Shown in pieces: positions 14,056 to 24,859 of a stretch of 64,000 nt of DNA; position 1 is the first letter of the stretch, and every line of letters begins with the position of its first letter. Source of the stretch: Alphaproteobacteria bacterium (lineage in GTDB: Bacteria > Pseudomonadota > Alphaproteobacteria > MPNO01 > UBA830); contig OZ219791.1 of NCBI GenBank assembly GCA_964291215.2, positions 2,208,001-2,272,000 on the forward strand, given 5' to 3'. The notes under the pieces are model-generated. The model was not told where the DNA came from and made no database searches. It saw only the letters and a list, made by a program, of their open reading frames with translations. The translations under genes were made by a program, and so were the position numbers.

Positions 14056-14439
14056 CGCGCTGCTTCCTGCATCGGGGCATACGGTCAATCTGGGGCAATT
14101 GCTGTTTGCAGTCAAGAGGCGGAGTTCCGACAGCCAAGGCGATCTGCAGCGTCCAGACGCACCGTTACCTGACCCCGCACCACCTCCATCCCGCCGCCCG
14201 GCGGCGACAGGCTACGATGGTCCTCCTTCCGAACCACCACCGACGTATCCTTGATGCAGGGAGCGAGGCCCGGCCGGTCTGCATCGGTCGGCAGTTTTCC
14301 GTTGCGTGACAGACGGTTGGGCCTGGCCCGGCCTCTGACCGCGGTTTCGCGCGCGGGTCGCGTTGTCCGTTCAAGAGCGCCGTTCCGTTCCCCCGGGACG
14401 GACGGCGCCCGAGGGAACAGACAACGGAGACACGCGCAT

Positions 14440-15530
14440 CCATGCCCCCATCAACGAGCGGACGGTCCGCCGCACCTTCAGGGAGAAGAAACCCGGGCGA
14501 TACGGCCTGACCGTCAGGGACCTGCCCGCCTTCGGCTTCACCGTCGCCGGGACGAAGACCTTCTTTGTCCAGACCTCACGCCAGTTCGGCGCGCCCAGGG
14601 CGATCCTCGGCACGACCGACGACATGACCGCCGCCGAGGCGAGGGAGAAGGCCATTGCCGCCATCGCCGAAGCCGGGGCCGACCGCGAGACCGGGCCGCT
14701 GTTCGCCGACTTCGCGGCCGACTTCATGCGCCGCCAGGGGCGGCGCTGGAAACCCTCCACGAAGAAGGCCAACGCCCATCTGATCGAGCGCCGCCTCCTG
14801 CCCTTCTTCGGCGCGATGCCCGTCGCGAAGATCGACCGCGCCAATGTGCGGCGCTGGTTCGATTCCCTCAGCGGAACCCCCGGCAGCGCCAACCGGACCC
14901 TGCCGGTGCTCTCGGTGATGATGCGGCAGGCGGAGCTATGGGACCTTCGCCCGCAGGGCTCCAACCCCTGCCGCAACATGCGGCGCTACAGGACGGCGCC
15001 GCGCGAGCGGTTCCTGTCGCTGGAGGAACTCAAGCGCCTCGGCTTCGTCCTCGACCATGCGGAGGACCGGCAGGCCGCCTGCTGCTGTTCACCGGCGCCC
15101 GGTCGTCCGAGATCGCCGGCCTGCAATGGGACTGGATACGGGACACCCGCGCGGTGTTGCCGGACTCCAAGACCGGGCGCTCCAGCTTCCCCCGCGGGCC
15201 GTCCTGAATGGCCTGCCGCGCGAGGGACGCTTCGTCTTCCCGAACGGGAAGGGCGACGGCCCGATGACCGACCTCGGCCTGCGCTGGCAGAAGCTGCGCG
15301 GTCTCGCCGGGCTGGACGATGTGCGCATCCACGACTGCCGGCATACCTTCGCCTCCCATGCCGTGATGAGCGGCCTCGACCTCTACACCGTCGGCCGCCT
15401 GCTCGGCCATGCCGATACCGCCTCCACCGAACGCTACGCCCATCTCGCCGACGAGCATGTCCGCGAGGCGGCCGGGCGCATCTCCGGCATCGTCCACGAG
15501 GCCATGACCGCGAAGGAGAGCGGGCGATGA
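14440..15530 (+). pseudogene. Tyrosine recombinase/integrase 1 (Arm-binding N-terminus), frameshifted
   Basis: FTGARSSEI, LPDSKTG, RIHDCRHTFASHAV, LLGH, ERYAHL distributed over three frames. Confidence 0.85.
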
Positions 15531-16859
15531 GCGGCGGCAGGCACCGGCTCACCGTGAAGGCCGTCGCCAAGCCGGCGGAACGGGAATACACCCTGTGGGA
15601 CAATCTGCTGGCGCATTTCGGGGTCAGGGTGCAGCCCTCCGGCGTCCGGTCCCGGATCGTCCAGACCCGCGTCCGGGGACGCATGCGCAAGATCACCCTC
15701 GGGCGCTTCCCCGAACTGCCTCTCGACGCGGCCCGCCGGGAAGGCGCGGCCGTGCTCGCCCGCCTGTGGGGCGGCGAAGACGTGACGCCGCCGCGCAAGG
15801 AGAAGGCGCCGCTGTTCCGGGACTTCGCCGCCCGTTACCGCTCGCGGCGGAAACACCGCTGGAAGCCGTCCTCGCTCGAGACCTTCGACATCTACCTGAA
15901 GAACCGCCTGATGCCGCACTTCGGCAGGCTCCGGCTCGACGCCATCGACCATGCGCGGGTCTCGGCATGGTTCGACGCCGCCAGCGCGGACAGGCGCCGC
16001 CAACCGCGCCTTCGAGATACTCCGCGCCATGCTCGGGACGGCCCGCCAATGGGGCGACATCTGCGAGCATGTCCCAGACGCCTGCGCCAACATCGTGAAG
16101 AACCCCCGCAAGCCCGTCGCGCGTTACCTCAGCCGCGAAGAGCTGGAGCGTCTCGGCGCTGTGCTGGACCGCCGCCGGGAGGACCACCCCTGGCCGGTGG
16201 CGGCCATCCGGCTGTTGACCCTCACCGGGGCGCGGCTCTCCGAAGTCATCAACCTCAGGTGGGACGAGATCGGAGAGCTGGCCGGAGACGGCGCGAGCGC
16301 GCGCATCGAAGACTCCAAGACCGGGCCGCACACCATCTGGCTCGGACCCGAAGCGGCAAGGCTGGTCGAGGCGCTGCCGCGACTGGATGGCCGGGAGCGG
16401 GTGTTCCCCGAAACCCTCACATCGGCAAGGCTCTACACCTTCTGGTGCGGTATCCGCGACGAGGCGGGGCTTCCGGGCCTTCGCATCCACGACTGCCGCC
16501 ACACCTGGGCCTCGCAGGGCGTCATGAACGGCGTCGGGCTCACCACCGTCGGACGGCTGCTCGGACACCGCAAGCGGGAGACCACCGCGATCTACGCCCA
16601 TCTCGACGATGGCGCGCTGCGCGACGCCGCCGCGCAGGCCGCCGCCGTCATCGCGCGAGCGATGGGGTACAGGGCGGAAGCGGCGCCGCTGCCGGACAAG
16701 GCGGAGCACGGCGACGTATTGGCTGCAGCGCCCGGGCTCCCGGGTCCCGGAAAGCCAACCGCGCCAGAGAAGGAGTGGATTCCTCTTCGTGGCAGATCCC
16801 GGGATCCGGAGCGATCGGATGCAAGCATCCGCCGTAGACCGCAGGGTATCGAGATCTGA
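15527..16859 (+). pseudogene. Tyrosine recombinase/integrase 2, one frameshift near 15990
   Basis: Arm-DNA-binding-like EYTLWD..FGVRVQPSG..KITLGRFP, then TGARLSE, DSKTG, HDCRH, LGH, AIYAH; ATGA overlap with integrase 1. Confidence 0.88.
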
Positions 16860-17029
16860 GTTTGTGGCGGGCGTGGAGCCGATCGGGGAGGGTCAGGCGG
16901 GGTCTTTGCCATGAGCCCTGATCGGGTTGCCGGTCGTCCCGCCAGTTACAGGGAAAGGGCCCGTCGAGCCGGCTCTGCGGGCTCGTCGTTCATGCCGGCA
17001 ATGTCCAGGATCGCGACGGAGCCTCGGCC

Positions 17030-17366
17030 GTGCGGAAATCGATCCGCCATGCCTGCCCCTGGCTGCGCCATCTGTTCGCCGACGGCGGGTATGCCGGGCC
17101 GAAGCTGCGCGGCGCCTCGACAGGGTCGGCAAGTGGACGCTCGAGATCGTCAAGCGGTCGGTCATCGCAAGCGGCTTCGAAAGCCTCTCTGGACGATGGG
17201 TCGCCGGACGCACCTTCGCGTGGCTCGGACGCTGCCGCAGGTTGGCGAAAGACCGGGAGAAATCCATCGCCTCAAGCGAAGCATGGATCGAAATTGCTCA
17301 CATCAGGCTTACAACACGGCGCCTCGCAAGGCCCTGTAATCCTTGAAGGAGTTTCAAGTCAGGCTC
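17030..17366 (+). mobile_element. IS5-family transposase 3' remnant with right end
   Basis: PWLRHLFADGGYAGPKL and RW..RTFAWLGRCRRLAKD.EKSIASS; ends GTCAGGCTC. Confidence 0.8.
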
Positions 17367-17407
17367 CGAGGCCGGACGCGCCTGCCGAAAGGCGATTCAT
17401 ATTTTGT

Positions 17408-17448
17408 TTGATTTTGCAACATCATCATGCTACATTGTATGAAAATCA
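17408..17448 (+). promoter_or_regulatory. Sigma70-like promoter overlapped by an imperfect inverted repeat (candidate XRE operator)
   Basis: TTGATT (17408)-17 bp-TACATT (17431) with TG extension; arms TGATTTTgcaACA / TGTatgAAAATCA. Confidence 0.5.
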
Positions 17449-17463
17449 GACATGGAGGCTCCA

Positions 17464-17808
17464 ATGGCACCTGTTACGACACTCGAGCCCAAGACCGTAC
17501 CGGCATTCCCTGCCGGGGAAATCGAGGCCTGTATCCGCGATGTCCTGGCGGACCAAGGCGCGATGCAGGTGGCCCTGCAAGGCGGCGCAACACCAGCAGG
17601 CGATCCGGGCAGTGCGGTCGGTCCGCAGCCGGTGATCGATTCGCTGGTCGTTGTGGAAGTGCTGCTTGCAATCGAGCCGAAAGTACCGTTCGCGCTTCCC
17701 GACAGTCTGGTACAGCCGGGCGGTTACGACAATGTCGATGAGGTCGTGCAGCATCTTGTGCCACAACTGGAGCGGCGGTGGCGCAAGCATCATGAGGAGA
17801 AAAATTGA
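17464..17808 (+). CDS. Small acyl-carrier-protein-like protein
   Basis: IDSLVVVEVLLAIE resembles the ACP (L/I)DSL..VE...A.E helix; GGAGG RBS; TGATG coupling to the next gene. Confidence 0.6.
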   Translation: MAPVTTLEPKTVPAFPAGEIEACIRDVLADQGAMQVALQGGATPAGDPGSAVGPQPVIDSLVVVEVLLAIEPKVPFALPDSLVQPGGYDNVDEVVQHLVPQLERRWRKHHEEKN

Positions 17809-18200
17809 TGGCGGACAAAAGTAGGCAAGGCGAATCCTGGAGGGACGAAACGATTGACCGGCAACAGCTTGGCGCGCGTTTGCGCGAGGCGCGAGAGTAC
17901 TTGGGCCTATCACAGGATGAAGTAGCAAAATACCTCGGGATTCCGCGAACGGCGTTGTCGCATATCGAAAGCGGTCAGCGCCGCCTCGACGCGCTGGAAC
18001 TGAAAAAGGCTGCGCATCTGTATAAGCGCCCCATAGCCCATTTCACCGGAGAGGCAGAAGCTGATGCAAGCCTGCCTGACGACATCGCCCATCTGGCCCG
18101 TGCCGCTGCCGGCTTTTCGGAAAGGGACCGCCAGGAATTGAGCCGGTTTGCCGACTATCTGCGGGCACGCGCGCAAAGCGAGAGGTCCTCGGATGGCTGA
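17808..18200 (+). CDS. XRE-family HTH transcriptional regulator
   Basis: LGARLREAREYLGLSQDEVAKYLGIPRTALSHIESGQR. Confidence 0.93.
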   Translation: MADKSRQGESWRDETIDRQQLGARLREAREYLGLSQDEVAKYLGIPRTALSHIESGQRRLDALELKKAAHLYKRPIAHFTGEAEADASLPDDIAHLARAAAGFSERDRQELSRFADYLRARAQSERSSDG

Positions 18201-19208
18201 CGTCCGCAATGCCATTTTGCGCGGCAAGCGCGAGGCCGGCCGGTTGCACCGAGCGTTCGGGATGCGGGAGCGTGTCGAAGCGGAAGGCGGCCGGATCGAC
18301 GTGTTCGACACGATCATTAAATCGGGTGTGCCGCTTTTGTTCAAGCCGCTAGAAGGATTGCTCGGCGTTTTCATCAATGAGCCGATGCCCGGTGTCATGG
18401 TGACGACGAAGCGGGGACTCAGTATTCAGCGCTTCACCGGCGCTCATGAGCTGGGGCATTGCGTCCTCGATCATCGTCCGAGTCTTGATGATGAGTCGAT
18501 TTTGCGACGGTCGCCGTTCAATACCACGCCGGATTACGAGCAGCAGGAACTCGAAGCGGACGCATTCGCCACGGAGTTCATGATGCCGCCTTGGCTGTTC
18601 GTGGCGCATTTCCTGCGACACGAGTGGACGCCTGCGTTGATGGCGGATCCGCTGATGGTCTATCAACTCTCGCTGCGGATCGGTACGAGCTATGAGGCCA
18701 CATGCCGATCATTGATGCGGCCCGGCGTTGCCGTGATACAGAAGAACACGGTCGATAACCTGCTCCGTGTGCAGCCCAAGGCCATCAAGAAAGCGTTGCT
18801 TGGAGACTATGAACCGCCCGACTGGCGGCGGGATGTCTGGCTGCTGACGAAAAATGACGAAGGTGCCGTCATCGAGGGCAGCCGTTCGGACCTCTTTGTG
18901 CTCAAGTTGAAAGAACACAGCGGGTCCGGCTATGTCTGGACCTTCGAAGAACTCAACGAAGCGGGCTTTGCCGTTGTCCGCGACGAGCGTGAGGGACCGG
19001 ACGGCGAAACAATCGGCGGGCACGTGATGCGGTCGATTACGGCGCGCTCCGAAGGACCGCAACAGGGACGAATGGCACTTGCAGAGCGGCGCCCATGGCT
19101 TGCCGAAGGCGCACCACTGGCCTCATTCTGCGTCCACTTGACCTGAGCGGGCCGCAAGGCGAAGGGATATCGCGAGCCGAGCGGCAGCATCTGCTGGGAG
19201 CCGCCTGA
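18193..19208 (+). CDS. ImmA/IrrE (M78) metallopeptidase fused to a chagasin/I42-like inhibitor domain; probable 1-nt deletion near 19139 (current ORF stops at 19146)
   Basis: QRFTGAHELGH and E.EADAFA.EFMMP; C-terminal LKEHSGSGYVW..IGG..RRPW; shifted frame DLSGPQGEGISRAERQHLLGAA* ends in TGATG on the next start. Confidence 0.85.
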
Positions 19209-19909
19209 TGGAGGTCACGGTCGAATGTGACCTGCGTCATTTGTTCGGTCCGGCGCGCGATCAAGGCGTGCGGCCAACCTGCATGGCCTTCGCGGCAAGT
19301 GACGCCCACGCGGCGGCCCGGCCGGACTGGGTTCCACTGTCGTGCGAATACGCCTATTTCCATGCACTGAGACGGGACGGGGGCAACCCAGATGACGGGA
19401 CAACGCTCACTGCGATACTGACGGCGATCAAAGAGGACGGACAGCCGCCGGAGACGACCTGGGCGTACCTGCCGCGCATGCCGGCCGACTTTGCGCTATG
19501 GAAGCCGCCCGAAAGCGTCAGCCTTCTTTACCGGCGTGCCAACGCCCATGGCCGCGCATCACTCACCGCAATCCGTACAGGACTAGATGCCGGAGTACCG
19601 ATGATTACAACGATGTGCCTGTCCGATGCATTCTTCCAGCCCGACCCGGACAGCATCATCGACGCATGCGAGCCACCCGACCCGCAGCGGCGGCACGCGA
19701 TTATCGCGGTCGGCTATGGCACTCGGAGTGGCAACCGACTGATCCTTGTACGGAATAGCTGGGGCACGGGCTGGGGCGCCGATGGTTATGCGTGGGTAAG
19801 CGAAAGCTATCTTGCACCCCGTTTGTACGATTTTGCAGAAATGAAAGAGGATCTGACGAGTGTACCTGCCGATCCCAACGCAGCCAACGTGCGCAACAGC
19901 GTGGCTTGA
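19208..19909 (+). CDS. Papain-like (C1) cysteine protease
   Basis: RDQGVRPTCMAFA (Q..C), HAIIAVGYG (H), RNSWG..WG..GY (N); no signal peptide or pro-domain. Confidence 0.92.
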   Translation: MEVTVECDLRHLFGPARDQGVRPTCMAFAASDAHAAARPDWVPLSCEYAYFHALRRDGGNPDDGTTLTAILTAIKEDGQPPETTWAYLPRMPADFALWKPPESVSLLYRRANAHGRASLTAIRTGLDAGVPMITTMCLSDAFFQPDPDSIIDACEPPDPQRRHAIIAVGYGTRSGNRLILVRNSWGTGWGADGYAWVSESYLAPRLYDFAEMKEDLTSVPADPNAANVRNSVA

Positions 19910-20668
19910 GGCCTTGGTGGCTGTCGACAAGGAGCCCGGCCACGAAGCGCACAATGTGATTATCGACATGGCCGAGCCGCTGGTGCAGACCGCCGTCGAC
20001 GCGCGCATGATGAAGGTCGCCGACGATTTCTTACGTGACCGTGGCGCAATGCCCCTGCAATCCGTGGCGAATACGATCTTCCCGGAGGGTCTATACCGGC
20101 GGCACGGCGCGCCTGCTCTCTATCACGTGTATGGACAGGTTTACCAGCAGGTAAAGAAGAAGCAAGGCGATTGGGGCCGGTATTTTGAACGGATGATTCG
20201 CCGCCCGACTACAAACGGCAAGAACATCAATCCTCTCGCCGACATGATTGCGAAAATGACGCAGCATGTTCACGGTGGCGGCAAAACGTTCCGCAACATA
20301 TACGAGTTGACCGTTTCCGATCCAGCTCTCGATGTGCCCATCTATGATCCCGAACGTGATGCCGGGCCGGTGATGAACCGACAGTGCATGAGCTTCCTGA
20401 GCTTCAAGCTTGATCATGAAAACGCATGATGCTGACCGCCTTGTACCGGAACCACTATTACATCGAACGGCTGTTCGGCAATCTGATTGGCCTCGCTCGG
20501 CTGATGGCTTTCGTTGGGCGCGAGGCCAATGTGCCGGTTGGTCCGCTGACCGTCATCTCCACCCACGCCGAAATCGACACGCGGCGCGGCTGGAAGCGCC
20601 ACGATATCAAAGAGCTAATCGCTGCGTGTCGGGAAGCCACAGCTCAAAAGGTGAGCGTCGTCGCGTAG
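19860..20668 (+). CDS. Thymidylate-synthase-like protein, split into 19860-20429 and 20426-20668 by a probable 1-nt deletion
   Basis: QCMSFLSFK (catalytic Cys position), LTALYRNH, FGNLIGLARL.AFV, VGPLTVISTHA match the TS core topology. Confidence 0.7.
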
Positions 20669-20672
20669 CCGA

Positions 20673-21323
20673 TTACCTGCCTGCGCTGGCGGTGCAACGC
20701 ACGCCGTAAAGGTCGCACATGCTGTGAATGAACTCCTTCTGCCCGCCATAACTGGGATGCCGGACGGCGGTCGACGCAAGATCAAGGTGGGAAAGCGCTT
20801 GCTGCGCATCGCGGCCTATGGCGACGAGGCGCCGGGGCTGCAGCATTTGCATCAGGGTCAACAAAATATCGTGGAACATGTCCCGCTCCGCGCGTGTATG
20901 ACGGCGGTTAGAAAGGGGGTCGCCAGTCTTGAAGGGGTGAAGCGGGAATACGTTCCACAGGAAGATTGGCCTGTCAATTTGGGTGAGCACCTTCCAGACG
21001 ATGGCTGCTGTGCGCTCAGCCATAGGTGGCCCTTTCGTCGCGCGTGAGATCGAGACCCCGTAAATCTCCCTGAACGTCTGCAAGTGAATTTCGTCCGTGA
21101 GCGGCAGCCCGGTTTGGCGTCCACCACGATAACCCAGATCGCGCGCAAGCCAAATTGAGTCCACTTCTTCATCCGCAACGGTTTCAAGAAAAGCGCGCAA
21201 ATTAGCGTGCCGCCTTTTCGGAGCGTCAGCGCGGTCATGGACCGGGCATACGTCTCTGTACGGATTGAAAACAGCGTCGAGATGGACGGCGCTCAAGGCG
21301 TCGACGAGGGCAGACGGTTTCAT
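20673..21323 (-). CDS. Uracil-DNA glycosylase superfamily protein
   Basis: VFNPY, DLGYRGGRQTGLPLTDE, ERTA, WNVFPLHP, AIGR.A, RHPSYGG. Confidence 0.85.
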   Translation of the reverse strand: MKPSALVDALSAVHLDAVFNPYRDVCPVHDRADAPKRRHANLRAFLETVADEEVDSIWLARDLGYRGGRQTGLPLTDEIHLQTFREIYGVSISRATKGPPMAERTAAIVWKVLTQIDRPIFLWNVFPLHPFKTGDPLSNRRHTRAERDMFHDILLTLMQMLQPRRLVAIGRDAQQALSHLDLASTAVRHPSYGGQKEFIHSMCDLYGVRCTASAGR

Positions 21324-22555
21324 GCGGCCAACCTCTCAAAGGTTATGTTTCGTTCATTCAGATCGACGATAACACTACCGCGTCTGTGCTCGCGTAGCGC
21401 ACGAAACACTTCATAGCCGCTCAGGATTGCCTATTCCCATAGCCAGAGCGGGCAGCGCTCTGGTTCATATCCGGTGACGAGCGCCCGCGCATTTTTGAGA
21501 AGGCCGTAATCGACGCCGCTTAAATTCTCGAAAAAATTCACCTGCGTAGCGTGATTGAATATCCAGGTCGCAACACCTTCCTCAATCAGTATGGCGCGAG
21601 CTCCGTCCTCGGCCTCATTGATCTCGGGACGGCTTTTGCGCTTGACCCGGAAGAGCGCCCGCATGACCGGGGACCACCCCAGTTTGGCCGCGTAAGCAAG
21701 ATGGAAAACATCATGGAAGCAATAATCGTCTTTTTCCAGCTTGTTGTCGGTAAGCCGGTCACCGACGTTGACGTCATTGCAGCGCAAAAAAACATACATC
21801 TTTTTGTCCACCGTCTTCTCGAAAATCTGCATCTCTATACGTCGCGGAATCTGCTCCCCGGAATCATATTCGTCGTCGAAGAGCGGCGGATAGATGCACT
21901 TCAGTGGCCAGCGGTCGTAAATCTTGGAGAGATTGCGATGCGCGGCTTCGCCCAAGCTGACGCCGACATTGTTAGCAGCTTTTATAATAGTACGGAATAC
22001 AGTTTCCATGTGGTCCGAAAGGTCACCGGACCCGTCCGCGATTTGACCTGCCGAAAAATCGGCGATCAGTTTGCCAACCTCGCCGGCCAAACGGATGAGC
22101 GTTGTCTCGAACACGGCTTCGGCGTCCGGTCCTGAGACCGACAACGTTGGCTGAAGCCTTGAAAAGGTGATGTCTGGCACGCTATCGTTGGAACCGCCGT
22201 CACTGATGCGGCTGGCGAGCACTGGAAGCGTTATCTGTGCCCGGCTGGCCAAGCGGGAGAAATACCAAAGGATGTCCCCCAACTCTTCGATGACTGACTG
22301 CTGGTAACCGAAATAGGAATCGGAATCGCGCTGCTTCTTCTTAAGTTCAGACAGCAGGCTTCCTGCCTCGCCAAACAGACCTAGCAGAGGGAAAGAAAGT
22401 CCCTCGGGCATCCGGTCTGTACCGCAGGACAGGGTTTGATATTGCGCGAGAGTGAGTTCGCAATAGGGAGCTTTCAGAACTGCCTCAAGCGCACCTGACA
22501 TTTTGTCGCGCTGCTCCGCAGAGTTCTTGCTCTCGCCGAAACGGAGGTTCGCCAT
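21320..22555 (-). pseudogene. MazG-like NTP pyrophosphohydrolase with MazG_C domain; in-frame TAG at 21431-21433
   Basis: GLFGEAGSL..E.KK, EELGDILWY, D.Y.FHDVFH, WSPV.R, EDGARA..IEEG; frame resumes for 36 codons to a TGA overlapping the UDG ATG. Confidence 0.82.
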
Positions 22556-22655
22556 CAAATCCTCACATCCTACCGCAACTGGGGGAAGGGCCGATGATGA
22601 CCCCTCCTGCCCGGCCTCGTCGCAGTGGGCATTCCAACACGCCGTGCACGCTCGC

Positions 22656-22940
22656 CTACTCTCGTCTGGCACCGAAACTACCGACGATGCCGCGTTTCTC
22701 GAAGGCGCCCGCGGCTTCGGCATGGTTCGGGCCGTGGAAGCCGCCCCGGATGATATCCCCCGAGGCTCCGGAACCGAATGTGCCGTCCGCGCCGACCGGA
22801 ACGTCGTCGAAGCTGACGGCGCCGACGGACCAGGCATCGCCGTTCGCATTATCCCTGATGTTGTCGATCGCCACGTCGATCATGCCGGCCGCAGCGCTCC
22901 AGGAGAGAGTCGCGTCCCCGGCCAGGCGGGTTCCGACCGC
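22656..22940 (-). pseudogene. C-terminal fragment of a TbpB/transferrin-binding-like beta-barrel surface protein
   Basis: IRGGFHGPNHAEAAGAFEKRGIVGSFGARRE* matches the typical G.F.GP...E..G.F....G.FGA.R terminus. Confidence 0.6.
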
Positions 22941-22944
22941 GGCT

Positions 22945-23420
22945 CCCCGCTCGCTGGCGATTTCCATGCCTTCGCCGAGGCCGGCCGCCGTCTCGCGGCA
23001 CTGCATCTCGGCTACGAGACCTGCGAGGAATATCCGCTGCGGCTCGACTATGCCGGGAAGGGCGCGCCTGCGCTGGCGCAGTTCCGGCTTGGCCATCGCG
23101 CCATGCGCTTCGCCGACGCGGACCGGACCGTTCTCATCGTCAACGACCTGGTCCGCCTGTCGGGCATCCCCCCGCAAGCACACGAGTATCGGGTCAACGG
23201 GCGCACCCCGCTCGAATGGCTGATCGATCGCTACCGTATCGTCCGCGACCGGCAGAGCGGCATCGTCAATGACCCCAACGGCTGGTTCGACGACCCGCGT
23301 GACCTGATACCGGCGCTGCGCCGCATCGTGCAGGTCAGCGTGGAGACCGTTGCCATCATTGCGGGCCTTCCCTGTCCGTTCGCGGAACTGCGGGAACAGT
23401 CGAACGGAGAGCGACCATGA
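22945..23420 (+). pseudogene. Type ISP restriction-modification enzyme C-terminal (specificity) fragment
   Basis: DFHAFAEAGRRLAALHLGYE, GIPPQAHEYRVNGRTPLEWLIDRY, SGIVNDPN, IVQVSVET; no N-terminal part. Confidence 0.85.
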
Positions 23421-24859
23421 CGGTCGAGCGGATCGCGCGAATGGTATCGGCGGGTGAATCCGAAACGCTTGAGTTCAAGACCACGACCGGGACGCGCCGC
23501 GAGGCGGTACGAACCGTCTGCGCGATGCTTAACCAGCAGGGCGGCCTGGTCCTGTTCGGCGTCACGCCGGAAGGCCGCGTGGTCGGACAGCAGGTGAGCG
23601 AACGCACAATCGAGGAGGTGAGCGCTGAGCTCTCGAGAATAGATCCGCCCGCATTTCCGGCGATTGAACGCATCCCAGTTAAAGAAGGTCTCGAGATCGT
23701 CGCCGTCACTGTCGTGCGCGGGCAAGTCGGACCCTACATGTACCGTGGCAAGGCGTACCGGCGGGTCGGCAACACAACCGTCGAGATGGACACGGGCGAG
23801 TACCGCCAAATGCTCTTCGAGCGCATGCACAGCGAGCGGCGCTGGGAGAACCAGCCTGCGGAGGGATGGTCGGTCGACGAACTGGACGCACAGGAAATTC
23901 GCACCACCGTGGAGGAAGCGGTGCGGCGAGGCCGGATCGAAGATCCCGGCACCCGCGAACCCGGCGATCTGCTTCGTGGCCTCGGACTTTACCGGGACGG
24001 AATACTGTGGCGGGCGGCGGTTGCGCTGTTCGGCACCGAGGAACGGATCACTTTCGATATGCCGCAGTGCCTGCTCCGCGTCGCGCGCTTCCGGGGTATT
24101 GATCGCACGGAGTTTGTCGACAATCGTCAATTTCATGGCAACGCCTTTTCACTGCTCAAGGCCGCCGAACGCTTCCTGCGCGACAGCCTGCCCATCGCGG
24201 GTCACATTGAGGAGGGTCACATTGAGCGAGTCGACAAGCCGCTCATTCCTCCACTTGCGACGCGCGAGGCGCTGGCGAACGCGCTTTGCCATCGTGACTA
24301 TTCTATCGGTGGCGGTTCCGTGGGCGTTGCGATCTACGATGATCGCTTGGAGGTCACGTCGACCGGGACGCTGCATTTCGGGCTGACACCCGAAAAGTTG
24401 TTTGCACCGCACGAGTCGATACCCTGGAATCCGCTGCTCGCCGATGTCTTTTACCGTCGCGGCATCATTGAGCGCTGGGGACGTGGAACGCTGAAGATGG
24501 CGGAAGTGACAATCGCAACTGGATTACCGCAGCCCGAAATCGAGGATGCTGGAGGGTGCGTGACGGTTAGATTCCGCCATCCGTCGGCATCAATGCATAT
24601 CGTCGCGAAAGAGCGTATGGTTATTGCCGACGAATCAAATGTGCAGGTGCAGAAATTGAGCGAGGTGCAGCGGAGCGTCCTTGATCTCTTGGACCATACC
24701 GACCATCCTCTAGCACTTCGCGAAATACACGCTCGTTTGGCTGGATCTCTGAGTCTTCGTCAGGTGAAGAGGGTATTGGGCCGATTGCGGGAACTCGGAT
24801 TTGCAACATCGACGGGTCATGGGGTATCGGCTCGATGGAACCGCGCGCAAGGACAATAG
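23417..24859 (+). CDS. Schlafen/AlbA_2 + HATPase-like (RecG C-terminal type) + wHTH protein
   Basis: GESETLEFK, CAMLNQQGGLVLFGV, REALANALCHRDY, WNPLLADVF..G.IERWGRG. Confidence 0.9.
   Translation: MTVERIARMVSAGESETLEFKTTTGTRREAVRTVCAMLNQQGGLVLFGVTPEGRVVGQQVSERTIEEVSAELSRIDPPAFPAIERIPVKEGLEIVAVTVVRGQVGPYMYRGKAYRRVGNTTVEMDTGEYRQMLFERMHSERRWENQPAEGWSVDELDAQEIRTTVEEAVRRGRIEDPGTREPGDLLRGLGLYRDGILWRAAVALFGTEERITFDMPQCLLRVARFRGIDRTEFVDNRQFHGNAFSLLKAAERFLRDSLPIAGHIEEGHIERVDKPLIPPLATREALANALCHRDYSIGGGSVGVAIYDDRLEVTSTGTLHFGLTPEKLFAPHESIPWNPLLADVFYRRGIIERWGRGTLKMAEVTIATGLPQPEIEDAGGCVTVRFRHPSASMHIVAKERMVIADESNVQVQKLSEVQRSVLDLLDHTDHPLALREIHARLAGSLSLRQVKRVLGRLRELGFATSTGHGVSARWNRAQGQ

Follow-up and report, generated by a model that had tools for sequence, protein, structure and literature searches.

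The window analysed here is a 64,000-nucleotide stretch of an Alphaproteobacteria bacterium genome (contig OZ219791.1), and the block under study, at positions 17408..22555, holds seven genes that form a real, widespread and apparently unnamed cassette related to nucleotide-modification conflict systems. The cassette encodes an acyl carrier protein (ACP)-like protein, an XRE repressor, an ImmA/IrrE-type metallopeptidase fused to a chagasin domain, a papain-family peptidase, an enzyme of the thymidylate synthase (TS) fold, a glycosylase of the uracil-DNA glycosylase (UDG) superfamily and a MazG-MazG_C protein. It is patchily distributed and mobile, and purifying selection acts between its intact copies, with ratios of nonsynonymous to synonymous substitution rates (dN/dS) of 0.09-0.15 in four genes. 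The copy in the window, broken in three genes, is probably inactive. Intact copies may constitute an inducible mark-and-excise conflict system, in which a C5-modified deoxyuridine monophosphate (dUMP) would be made and then excised from DNA; this reading is offered tentatively, at somewhat less than even strength.

Five genes on the + strand, overlapping by 1 to 50 bases, face the UDG and MazG genes on the - strand, and the stops of the TS-like gene and the UDG lie 4 bases apart, as read from the open reading frames (ORFs). The + strand series starts with the ACP-like gene (17464..17808), which encodes a D-S-L serine and has a GGAGG close 5' of its start at 17464 (17452 according to the ORF finder), followed by the CapH-like XRE helix-turn-helix repressor (17808..18200; Pfam HTH_3, PADLOC capH). 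The M78 Zn-peptidase (HELGH, E119) with its chagasin I42 domain spans 18193..19208, although a frameshift near 19138 ends the window frame at 19146, and the C1 peptidase (19208..19909) lacks a propeptide and keeps Q19, C25, H163 and N183 intact. In the TS-fold gene (19860..20668), a frameshift near 20422 leaves the Cys in a first piece and the Arg and Asn in a second. The - strand pair consists of the UDG-superfamily gene (20673..21323), an open frame with ARDLGYRGGRRTG and HPS motifs, and a gene for MazG, a degenerate MazG-like repeat and MazG_C (21320..22555) with a premature TAG at 21431-21433. The ACP and TS-like assignments derive from profile or fold comparison and the domains of the other five genes from Pfam. 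An earlier first-pass annotation, made from the letters alone, had placed and coupled the seven genes in this manner, and both ORF coordinates and Pfam domains confirm it.

Scanning GTDB genomes with an intact TS-like protein as query gave 192 candidate stretches, of which 86 were confirmed and 80 kept, a sample biased toward the window's own subtype. All seven genes were found by tblastn in 70 of these 80 loci, with around 30 near-identical sphingomonad copies among them. A metagenome scan anchored on the ImmA-chagasin protein returned 342 relatives (80 kept), and the loci showed the same neighbouring genes. Grouping at 85% identity gave 76 groups with the TS-like gene, of which 52 were flanked by 3 kb or more to either side and 24 short ones were dropped; co-occurrence counts in the 52 groups include kin that are not independent, so Fisher tests overstate significance. 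Among the 52 dereplicated, fully flanked groups, at least 28 have all seven genes and at least 26 have them in the exact order, and both figures are undercounts, as some overlapping XRE ORFs were missed. The exact order in 26 of 52 groups argues that the arrangement did not arise by chance, and the conserved gene order for which a check had been proposed is thus found. The proposed seven-gene composition is conserved as one subtype only: elsewhere the UDG is swapped for HMUDK_hel, papain and chagasin are optional, and AcpS, dCTP deaminase or thymidylate kinase are added. The family comprises 1404 clusters at 50% identity and E <=0.001, or 266 at E <=1e-30.

The patchiness is evident close to the host, where the cassette occurs in 1 of 60 relatives, and across the phylum, where 7 of 400 genomes have full-length matches and 13 more have weak partial ones. 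It is carried by 25 of 72,556 plasmid records, 15 of the 25 being conjugative, and some copies adjoin genes of the type IV secretion system (T4SS). Annotated plasmid copies come from Alphaproteobacteria, Burkholderia, Streptomyces, Mycobacterium, Nostoc and Haloarcula, that is, also from other phyla and an archaeon. In around 30 sphingomonad and other genomes (loci L026-L057 and L079), conjugation-type genes adjoin a near-identical copy, which suggests that it spread recently on one element. At the sensitivities used, neither 50,697 phage records nor viral contigs contained a match to the TS-like protein, and an origin as phage-borne counter-defence was set aside on this blank result. In a congener of the host (genome G001, loci L173 and L228), the HMUDK_hel subtype is present without papain and with AcpS and dCTP deaminase; a single genus thus contains both subtypes.

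A CapH/CapP-type switch over the cassette operon, with predicted repressor binding and cleavage, is supported by several observations. PADLOC matches the XRE protein to capH (E 7e-11) and the ImmA domain to capP (E 2e-15), the ImmA domain has PDB matches to IrrE and CapP, and its Zn-site residues H85, E86, H89 and E119 are invariant in 30 of 30 sequences. As described in the available part of the literature on CapH/CapP, and on DdrO/IrrE and ImmR/ImmA (bioRxiv 10.1101/2022.04.27.489752), these pairs likewise place an XRE repressor and an HExxH M78 peptidase with a third Zn ligand Glu over an operon. Upstream of the ACP gene lie two palindromic operator-like sites, at 17405..17421 (3 mismatches) and 17436..17452 (1 mismatch), resembling TGTCNGA-N3-TCNGACA, a consensus derived by eye from 18 loci and the window and scored at up to 2 mismatches. 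The palindrome precedes the ACP gene in 63 of 71 groups, compared with 0.6% of shuffles, and in 44 of the 49 groups outside the derivation set; 71 of the 105 sites in 944 kb sit just 5' of an ACP gene, and loci of Streptomyces and Mycobacterium also carry it. The five other papain-less loci showed no palindrome upstream of the cassette at up to 2 mismatches. The XRE/IrrE-type switch anticipated by the first-pass annotation is hence supported by the capH/capP matches and the conserved palindrome, and its protease gating, envisaged as a chagasin/papain lock, by co-occurrence, conserved loops and the catalytic set. The catalytic Gln/Cys/His/Asn of the propeptide-less papain is invariant and the three inhibitory loops of the chagasin are conserved; both domains occur in 75 groups, neither in 9, papain only in 3 and chagasin only in 0, or around 72, 6, 2 and 0 once duplicate-fetched loci are removed, and the six loci without both perhaps represent two lineages. 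The papain is an optional module, likely held by the chagasin domain through predicted binding. Three inhibitory loops and conserved catalytic residues are also the likeness to chagasin/amoebiasin (I42) and papain C1A, whereas the cassette chagasin is fused to a metallopeptidase and encoded beside its likely target.

The ACP, which the mechanism first suggested for this block had left out, is a core part of the cassette and is predicted to be phosphopantetheinylated. A profile of 29 homologues matches solved ACPs (best E 4e-5), an Atlas comparison concurs, and a Streptomyces homologue (L165) exceeds the PF00550 cut-off. The invariant Ser aligns on the phosphopantetheine attachment Ser of known ACPs and is kept in 76 of 76 groups. 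The phosphopantetheinyl transferase AcpS accompanies the cassette in 10 of the 52 groups, all of HMUDK_hel type; a further, more distant transferase is annotated in L166, and the host genome encodes AcpS.

The TS-like enzyme probably acts on a uracil-type nucleotide without folate. Its model (pLDDT 88) is confirmed as a TS fold by Foldseek (E 4e-9), and the closest structure is that of AfhB, a dCMP hydroxylase from phage (Z 17.3, second match 17.0; root-mean-square deviation (rmsd) 3.8 over 203 aligned residues), other matches being MilA (Z 16.4) and ThyA (Z 14.6). A sequence-only PDB search with the TS-like profile gave no meaningful match, and the enzyme falls far under the TIGR03283 cut-off. 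Among 131 diverse TS-like sequences, the catalytic C176 and N208 are kept in 131 and the phosphate-binding R197 in 130, and alignment with 11 canonical ThyA proteins, of moderate strength, places them on C146, N177 and R166, respectively. The Asp of the ThyA RSxD motif (D169), which serves folate activation, is present in only 12 of the 131 sequences, and HxY, the deoxyribose motif of ThyA, is not kept. With Cys, Asn and Arg retained and the folate Asp lost, TS chemistry would predict a uracil-type substrate and attack at C6, probably folate-free. The host has a ThyA of its own as well as four further genes of the UDG family, and identity of the cassette enzymes with housekeeping ThyA or UDG was ruled out.

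The glycosylase slot is filled by one of two families. The window UDG has the marks of its superfamily, namely motif 1, the Asn motif and the motif-2 His, and a profile search of the PDB gave two weak family-4 UDG matches only. Across the 52 groups, 32 have UDG alone, 18 have the 5-hmdU-kinase helical protein PF18723 HMUDK_hel alone, 2 have both and 0 have neither. A quick TS tree of 62 rows, which omits L169 and is weakened by long branches, has the UDG label changing 7 times and the HMUDK_hel label 5 times, with at least 4 changes forced by well-supported branches, which indicates that the exchange occurred more than once, yet few times. Three residues after motif 1, the cassette UDG has a Gly where the host family-4 enzyme has a Glu. 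In family 4 this Glu excludes C5 groups, so the Gly would leave room at C5 in the cassette pocket. This, together with a TS-like enzyme that has lost the folate Asp and kept Cys and Asn, invites the alternative that the cassette attacks modified uracil made by phages: the TS-fold enzyme, run in reverse, would trap 5-hydroxymethyl-dUMP on the ACP thiol or strip it onto that thiol, MazG would destroy the modified triphosphate and the UDG would excise the base from incoming phage DNA. Precedents exist in the available descriptions, in which the UDG-fold Brig2 defends against thymidine-modified phages and, with Brig1 and Brig3-BapA, exemplifies a UDG-fold enzyme acting on modified pyrimidines in DNA whose target can be widened by a helper enzyme. 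There, the Brig glycosylases attack phage-made bases, and no TS/ACP arm is described for them. HMUDK_hel itself belongs to phage 5-hydroxymethyluracil (hmU) pathways. The alternative, close to the second option of the first-pass annotation (attack on uracil- or hmU-containing phage DNA), is nevertheless judged unlikely, as the genes that join the cassette point to synthesis rather than removal: dCTP deaminase (8 of 52 groups), another TS of more canonical type (5 of 52) and, in some loci, thymidylate kinase (fused to MazG_C in L168, adjacent in L166).

The MazG-MazG_C protein is modelled (pLDDT 87) as an all-alpha fold resembling dimeric dUTPases (Z 13.0, rmsd 4.3, 184 aligned), although a Z of this order can also arise between helical proteins that are not closely related. 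In a comparison of 27 sequences, the invariant set of MazG_C comprises D247, H252, D253, H256, D284, D288, E296 and E297. For the MazG_C fold, Foldseek gave no match at E <=0.001, the VIA matches listed all fell in the N-terminal part, viral matches were MazG-like only and Atlas returned only MazG_C. In 13 groups, an ORF of 65-69 aa lies directly 5' of MazG (for example L082:8786-8995 and L083:8804-9001), ribbon-helix-helix-like by eye and with no Pfam or PHROG match; none was found in the window.

Other genes and fusions accompany parts of the cassette. A 460-aa ORF with no Pfam or PHROG match stands between the TS-like gene and the UDG in L001:8761-10143, with relatives in L060 and L133, and an unnamed family of 170-215 aa (phrog_19333, E 6e-13) recurs in L169:7498-8079, L124, L166 and L170, adjoining dCTP deaminase in 3 of the 4 loci. 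Fusions include ACP-XRE (L075:5570-6328), HMUDK_hel-MazG-MazG_C (L134:3097-5067) and MazG-MazG_C-thymidylate kinase (L168:11629-13116). In 5 of 52 groups the cassette has a calcineurin-like metallophosphoesterase next to it, divergent from MazG in four. Loci with this gene are L020, L061, L110, L112, L118 and L081:7413-10859, and in L081 it adjoins a MazG-UDG pair that has no ACP-TS arm.

Among known systems, PADLOC 2.0.0 reports no complete system in the block, in line with the earlier claim that no named system has this full composition; it matches only the components capH, capP, RmrA and PDC-M69, with no match for the ACP, papain, TS pieces, UDG or MazG. Iyer and colleagues reportedly defined MazG_C in 2013 and predicted operons of broadly this type in bacteria. 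No published description of the cassette was found in the literature, although Iyer 2013, Burroughs 2015, Nicastro 2023 or the figures and supplement of DefensePredictor may contain one. The closest validated relative is DS-4 ('NTTI'), an anti-phage system of a TS-superfamily enzyme, HMUDK_hel and a deoxynucleoside monophosphate (dNMP) kinase reported with DefensePredictor (PMC13092281), the available text of which also lists MazG and MazG-C among predicted, unvalidated defence domains. The TS-superfamily enzyme is shared, as are HMUDK_hel and a kinase in some cassette subtypes, whereas DS-4, as far as that text describes it, has a TS of 361 aa that keeps QRSGD, has TIR and Nmad2 genes and includes no ACP, XRE, ImmA-chagasin, papain, MazG_C or UDG. 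The window block, in turn, lacks HMUDK_hel, TIR, Nmad2 and the kinase, and its TS family differs, which places it outside DS-4. The pathways for phage hmU and thymidine hypermodification, in the part of their description available (PMC8989533), share a deaminase, an NTP pyrophosphatase, a TS-fold enzyme, a kinase and HMUDK/aGPT-Pplase parts. They differ from the cassette, which is cellular or plasmid-borne, repressor-controlled and equipped with a carrier protein.

In the proposed mark-and-excise mechanism, modelled for its control on CapH/CapP, the XRE protein would bind the palindrome and repress the ACP-XRE-ImmA-papain-TS operon until ImmA, switched on by a signal of damage or infection, cleaves the repressor. 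The ACP would be phosphopantetheinylated by the AcpS of the cassette or of the host, and the Cys of the TS-fold enzyme would attack dUMP at C6 and alter C5 without folate, the ACP arm serving as donor or acceptor. MazG-MazG_C, with dCTP deaminase where present, may feed or police the dUMP pool, and thymidylate kinase may lift the product to the triphosphate, which would enter newly made DNA. Transcribed apart from this operon, the UDG (in the sister subtype, HMUDK_hel) would then act on the altered base and stall phage or host replication, while the optional papain is likely restrained by the chagasin domain. An anti-phage role of some form is rather probable; the grounds for reading the cassette as defence are the switch, the precedents of DS-4 and Brig, and mobility. 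It could further be speculated that the TS fold, with the ACP as cofactor instead of folate, writes a new C5 uracil mark that poisons phage DNA or tags it for the glycosylase behind a two-protease lock; this fuller version is more doubtful, but if true, the TS fold would have gained a cofactor new to it, and the base targeted by the defence glycosylase would be made by the host and not by the phage.

Several points weigh against the mark-and-excise mechanism. AcpS is found in 0 of 34 UDG-bearing groups, and no ACP-loading enzyme (adenylation domain or acyltransferase) recurs among 46 neighbour clusters. Of the ExxE...ExxD metal set, the second Glu of the first pair is missing in 23 of 27 MazG sequences, the window type included, which makes pyrophosphatase activity unsure, and the ThyA residue mapping comes from a profile alignment of probability 89. 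In the available description, the CapH/CapP genes stand opposite their own operon and CapP ends in GAF, whereas the cassette pair lies on the same strand inside the operon and has a chagasin C-terminus. Flanking ORFs match PADLOC models (E <1e-10) in 21 of 130 cases, from 14 of 45 loci; in the host control the figures are 13 of 114 ORFs and 5 of 19 stretches. Enrichment was thus not shown, with one defence-rich genome as the control and the 1-3 nearest long ORFs scanned per locus. The palindrome precedes MazG-UDG in 2 of 35 cases, against 1.6% of shuffles and thus without enrichment, and HMUDK_hel genes in 0 of 24. The single induced unit of TS, MazG and UDG envisaged in the first-pass annotation therefore does not hold, as MazG-UDG has no palindrome here, and an antidote role for this pair fits the placement of the palindrome over the ACP-TS arm equally well. 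Under such a toxin/antidote arrangement, the induced ACP/TS arm would make a toxic nucleotide or drain dUMP, leading to abortive infection or dormancy, and MazG-MazG_C and the UDG would clean the pool and the host DNA. This seems somewhat unlikely overall. It fits a palindrome found solely over the ACP-TS arm, a MazG-UDG pair that forms a separate convergent unit, often preceded by a dedicated small ORF (the 13 groups above), the likeness of the MazG half to dimeric dUTPases and carriage by conjugative plasmids (15 of 25 records), but several loci have MazG, and about six HMUDK_hel, downstream of the TS gene on the same strand, MazG-UDG occurs without the TS arm in L081, and MazG is disrupted in L004, though ImmA and TS are disrupted there too. 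As conflict roles, mark-and-excise, toxin/antidote and attack on phage-made uracil overlap.

The defence-island enrichment raised for checking earlier was not shown over the host control, which also bears on a role outside defence. The flanking matches include Gabija, Septu, Type I, IIG and IV restriction, AbiE, Shedu, Mokosh, Lamassu and others. Defence loci of the host genome in the control stretches (L205, L206 and L215; G000 C1:100001-110000, C1:350001-360000 and C2:100001-110000) hold a Hma/DISARM-like helicase with a methylase, SoFic with AbiE and a type IV restriction endonuclease, and a Type I restriction-modification (RM) system with DarTG inside. Without a defence function, the cassette might hypermodify the DNA of the mobile element or the host, or tune pyrimidine pools during damage-induced transfer of a plasmid or an integrative and conjugative element under ImmR/ImmA-like control. 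The patchy, mobile distribution (1 of 60 relatives, 7 of 400 phylum genomes) next to T4SS genes suits this, as do parts that mirror phage base-modification pathways in their available description. Still, this is improbable: in 32 of 52 groups the place of the putative modifier is taken by a glycosylase, the core has no recurrent nuclease partner, and DS-4, which has similar parts, protects against phage.

The window copy itself carries three lesions. The frameshifts in the ImmA-chagasin and TS-like genes are 1-base deletions, the latter splitting its gene in two, and the TAG in MazG_C is in frame. Locus L002 matches window positions 14240-22947 at 95.8% identity and has all three genes open; L001 and L004, as well as contigs of three public runs, keep the extra base at both deletion sites, and neither deletion lies within a long homopolymer. 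The first piece of the TS-like gene differs from L002 by 6 nonsynonymous changes and 1 synonymous one. These observations weakly favour real decay over assembly error. Programmed frameshifting or recoding at the three breaks was ruled out, the relatives being open in frame. Since the TS frameshift parts the catalytic Cys from Arg197 and Asn208, the window copy would lack activity. The first-pass annotation had overlooked the lesions, so its gene block stands in position, order and domains and falls short in that the copy is broken. A 92%-identical relative (L004:2776-13388) is more decayed, with insertions of around 2.7 kb in ImmA and MazG and a TS frameshift of its own. The synonymous divergence (dS) between the window and L002 is 0.29 in the UDG and 0.01-0.13 in the remaining genes, an excess that suggests recombination of the UDG gene.

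The surroundings are those of the integrase island described earlier, with a Type ISP relic and a Schlafen neighbour, as Pfam confirms. Broken tyrosine-integrase genes lie upstream (14363..16859, + strand), and a Type ISP C-terminal remnant and a Schlafen/AlbA_2-HATPase_c_4 gene lie downstream (22947..24859, + strand), outside the cassette; their candidacy as cassette members was rejected, as ISP matched in 2 of 83 loci and Schlafen in 0 of 83. The block is more AT-rich than the host genes, as had been claimed, with a G+C content of 58.4% against 63.3% for the whole window and a third-position G+C (GC3) of 0.63-0.75 in cassette genes against 0.74-0.82 in six host genes. Immediately 5' of the operator sites lies a transposase-like fragment (16893-17346), presumably IS5-like, followed by a terminator-like hairpin at 17379-17394. 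A sigma-70 scan of 17300-17500 found no promoter.

The cassette offers point-mutant handles on every step, namely the ACP Ser, the TS Cys, the ImmA Glu, the papain Cys, the UDG His and the palindrome. Its study could uncover TS chemistry that needs no folate, along with a new base in DNA. The exchange between UDG and HMUDK_hel would provide a direct route to the roles of cellular PF18723 proteins and MazG_C, and bears on the validated, unexplained DS-4.

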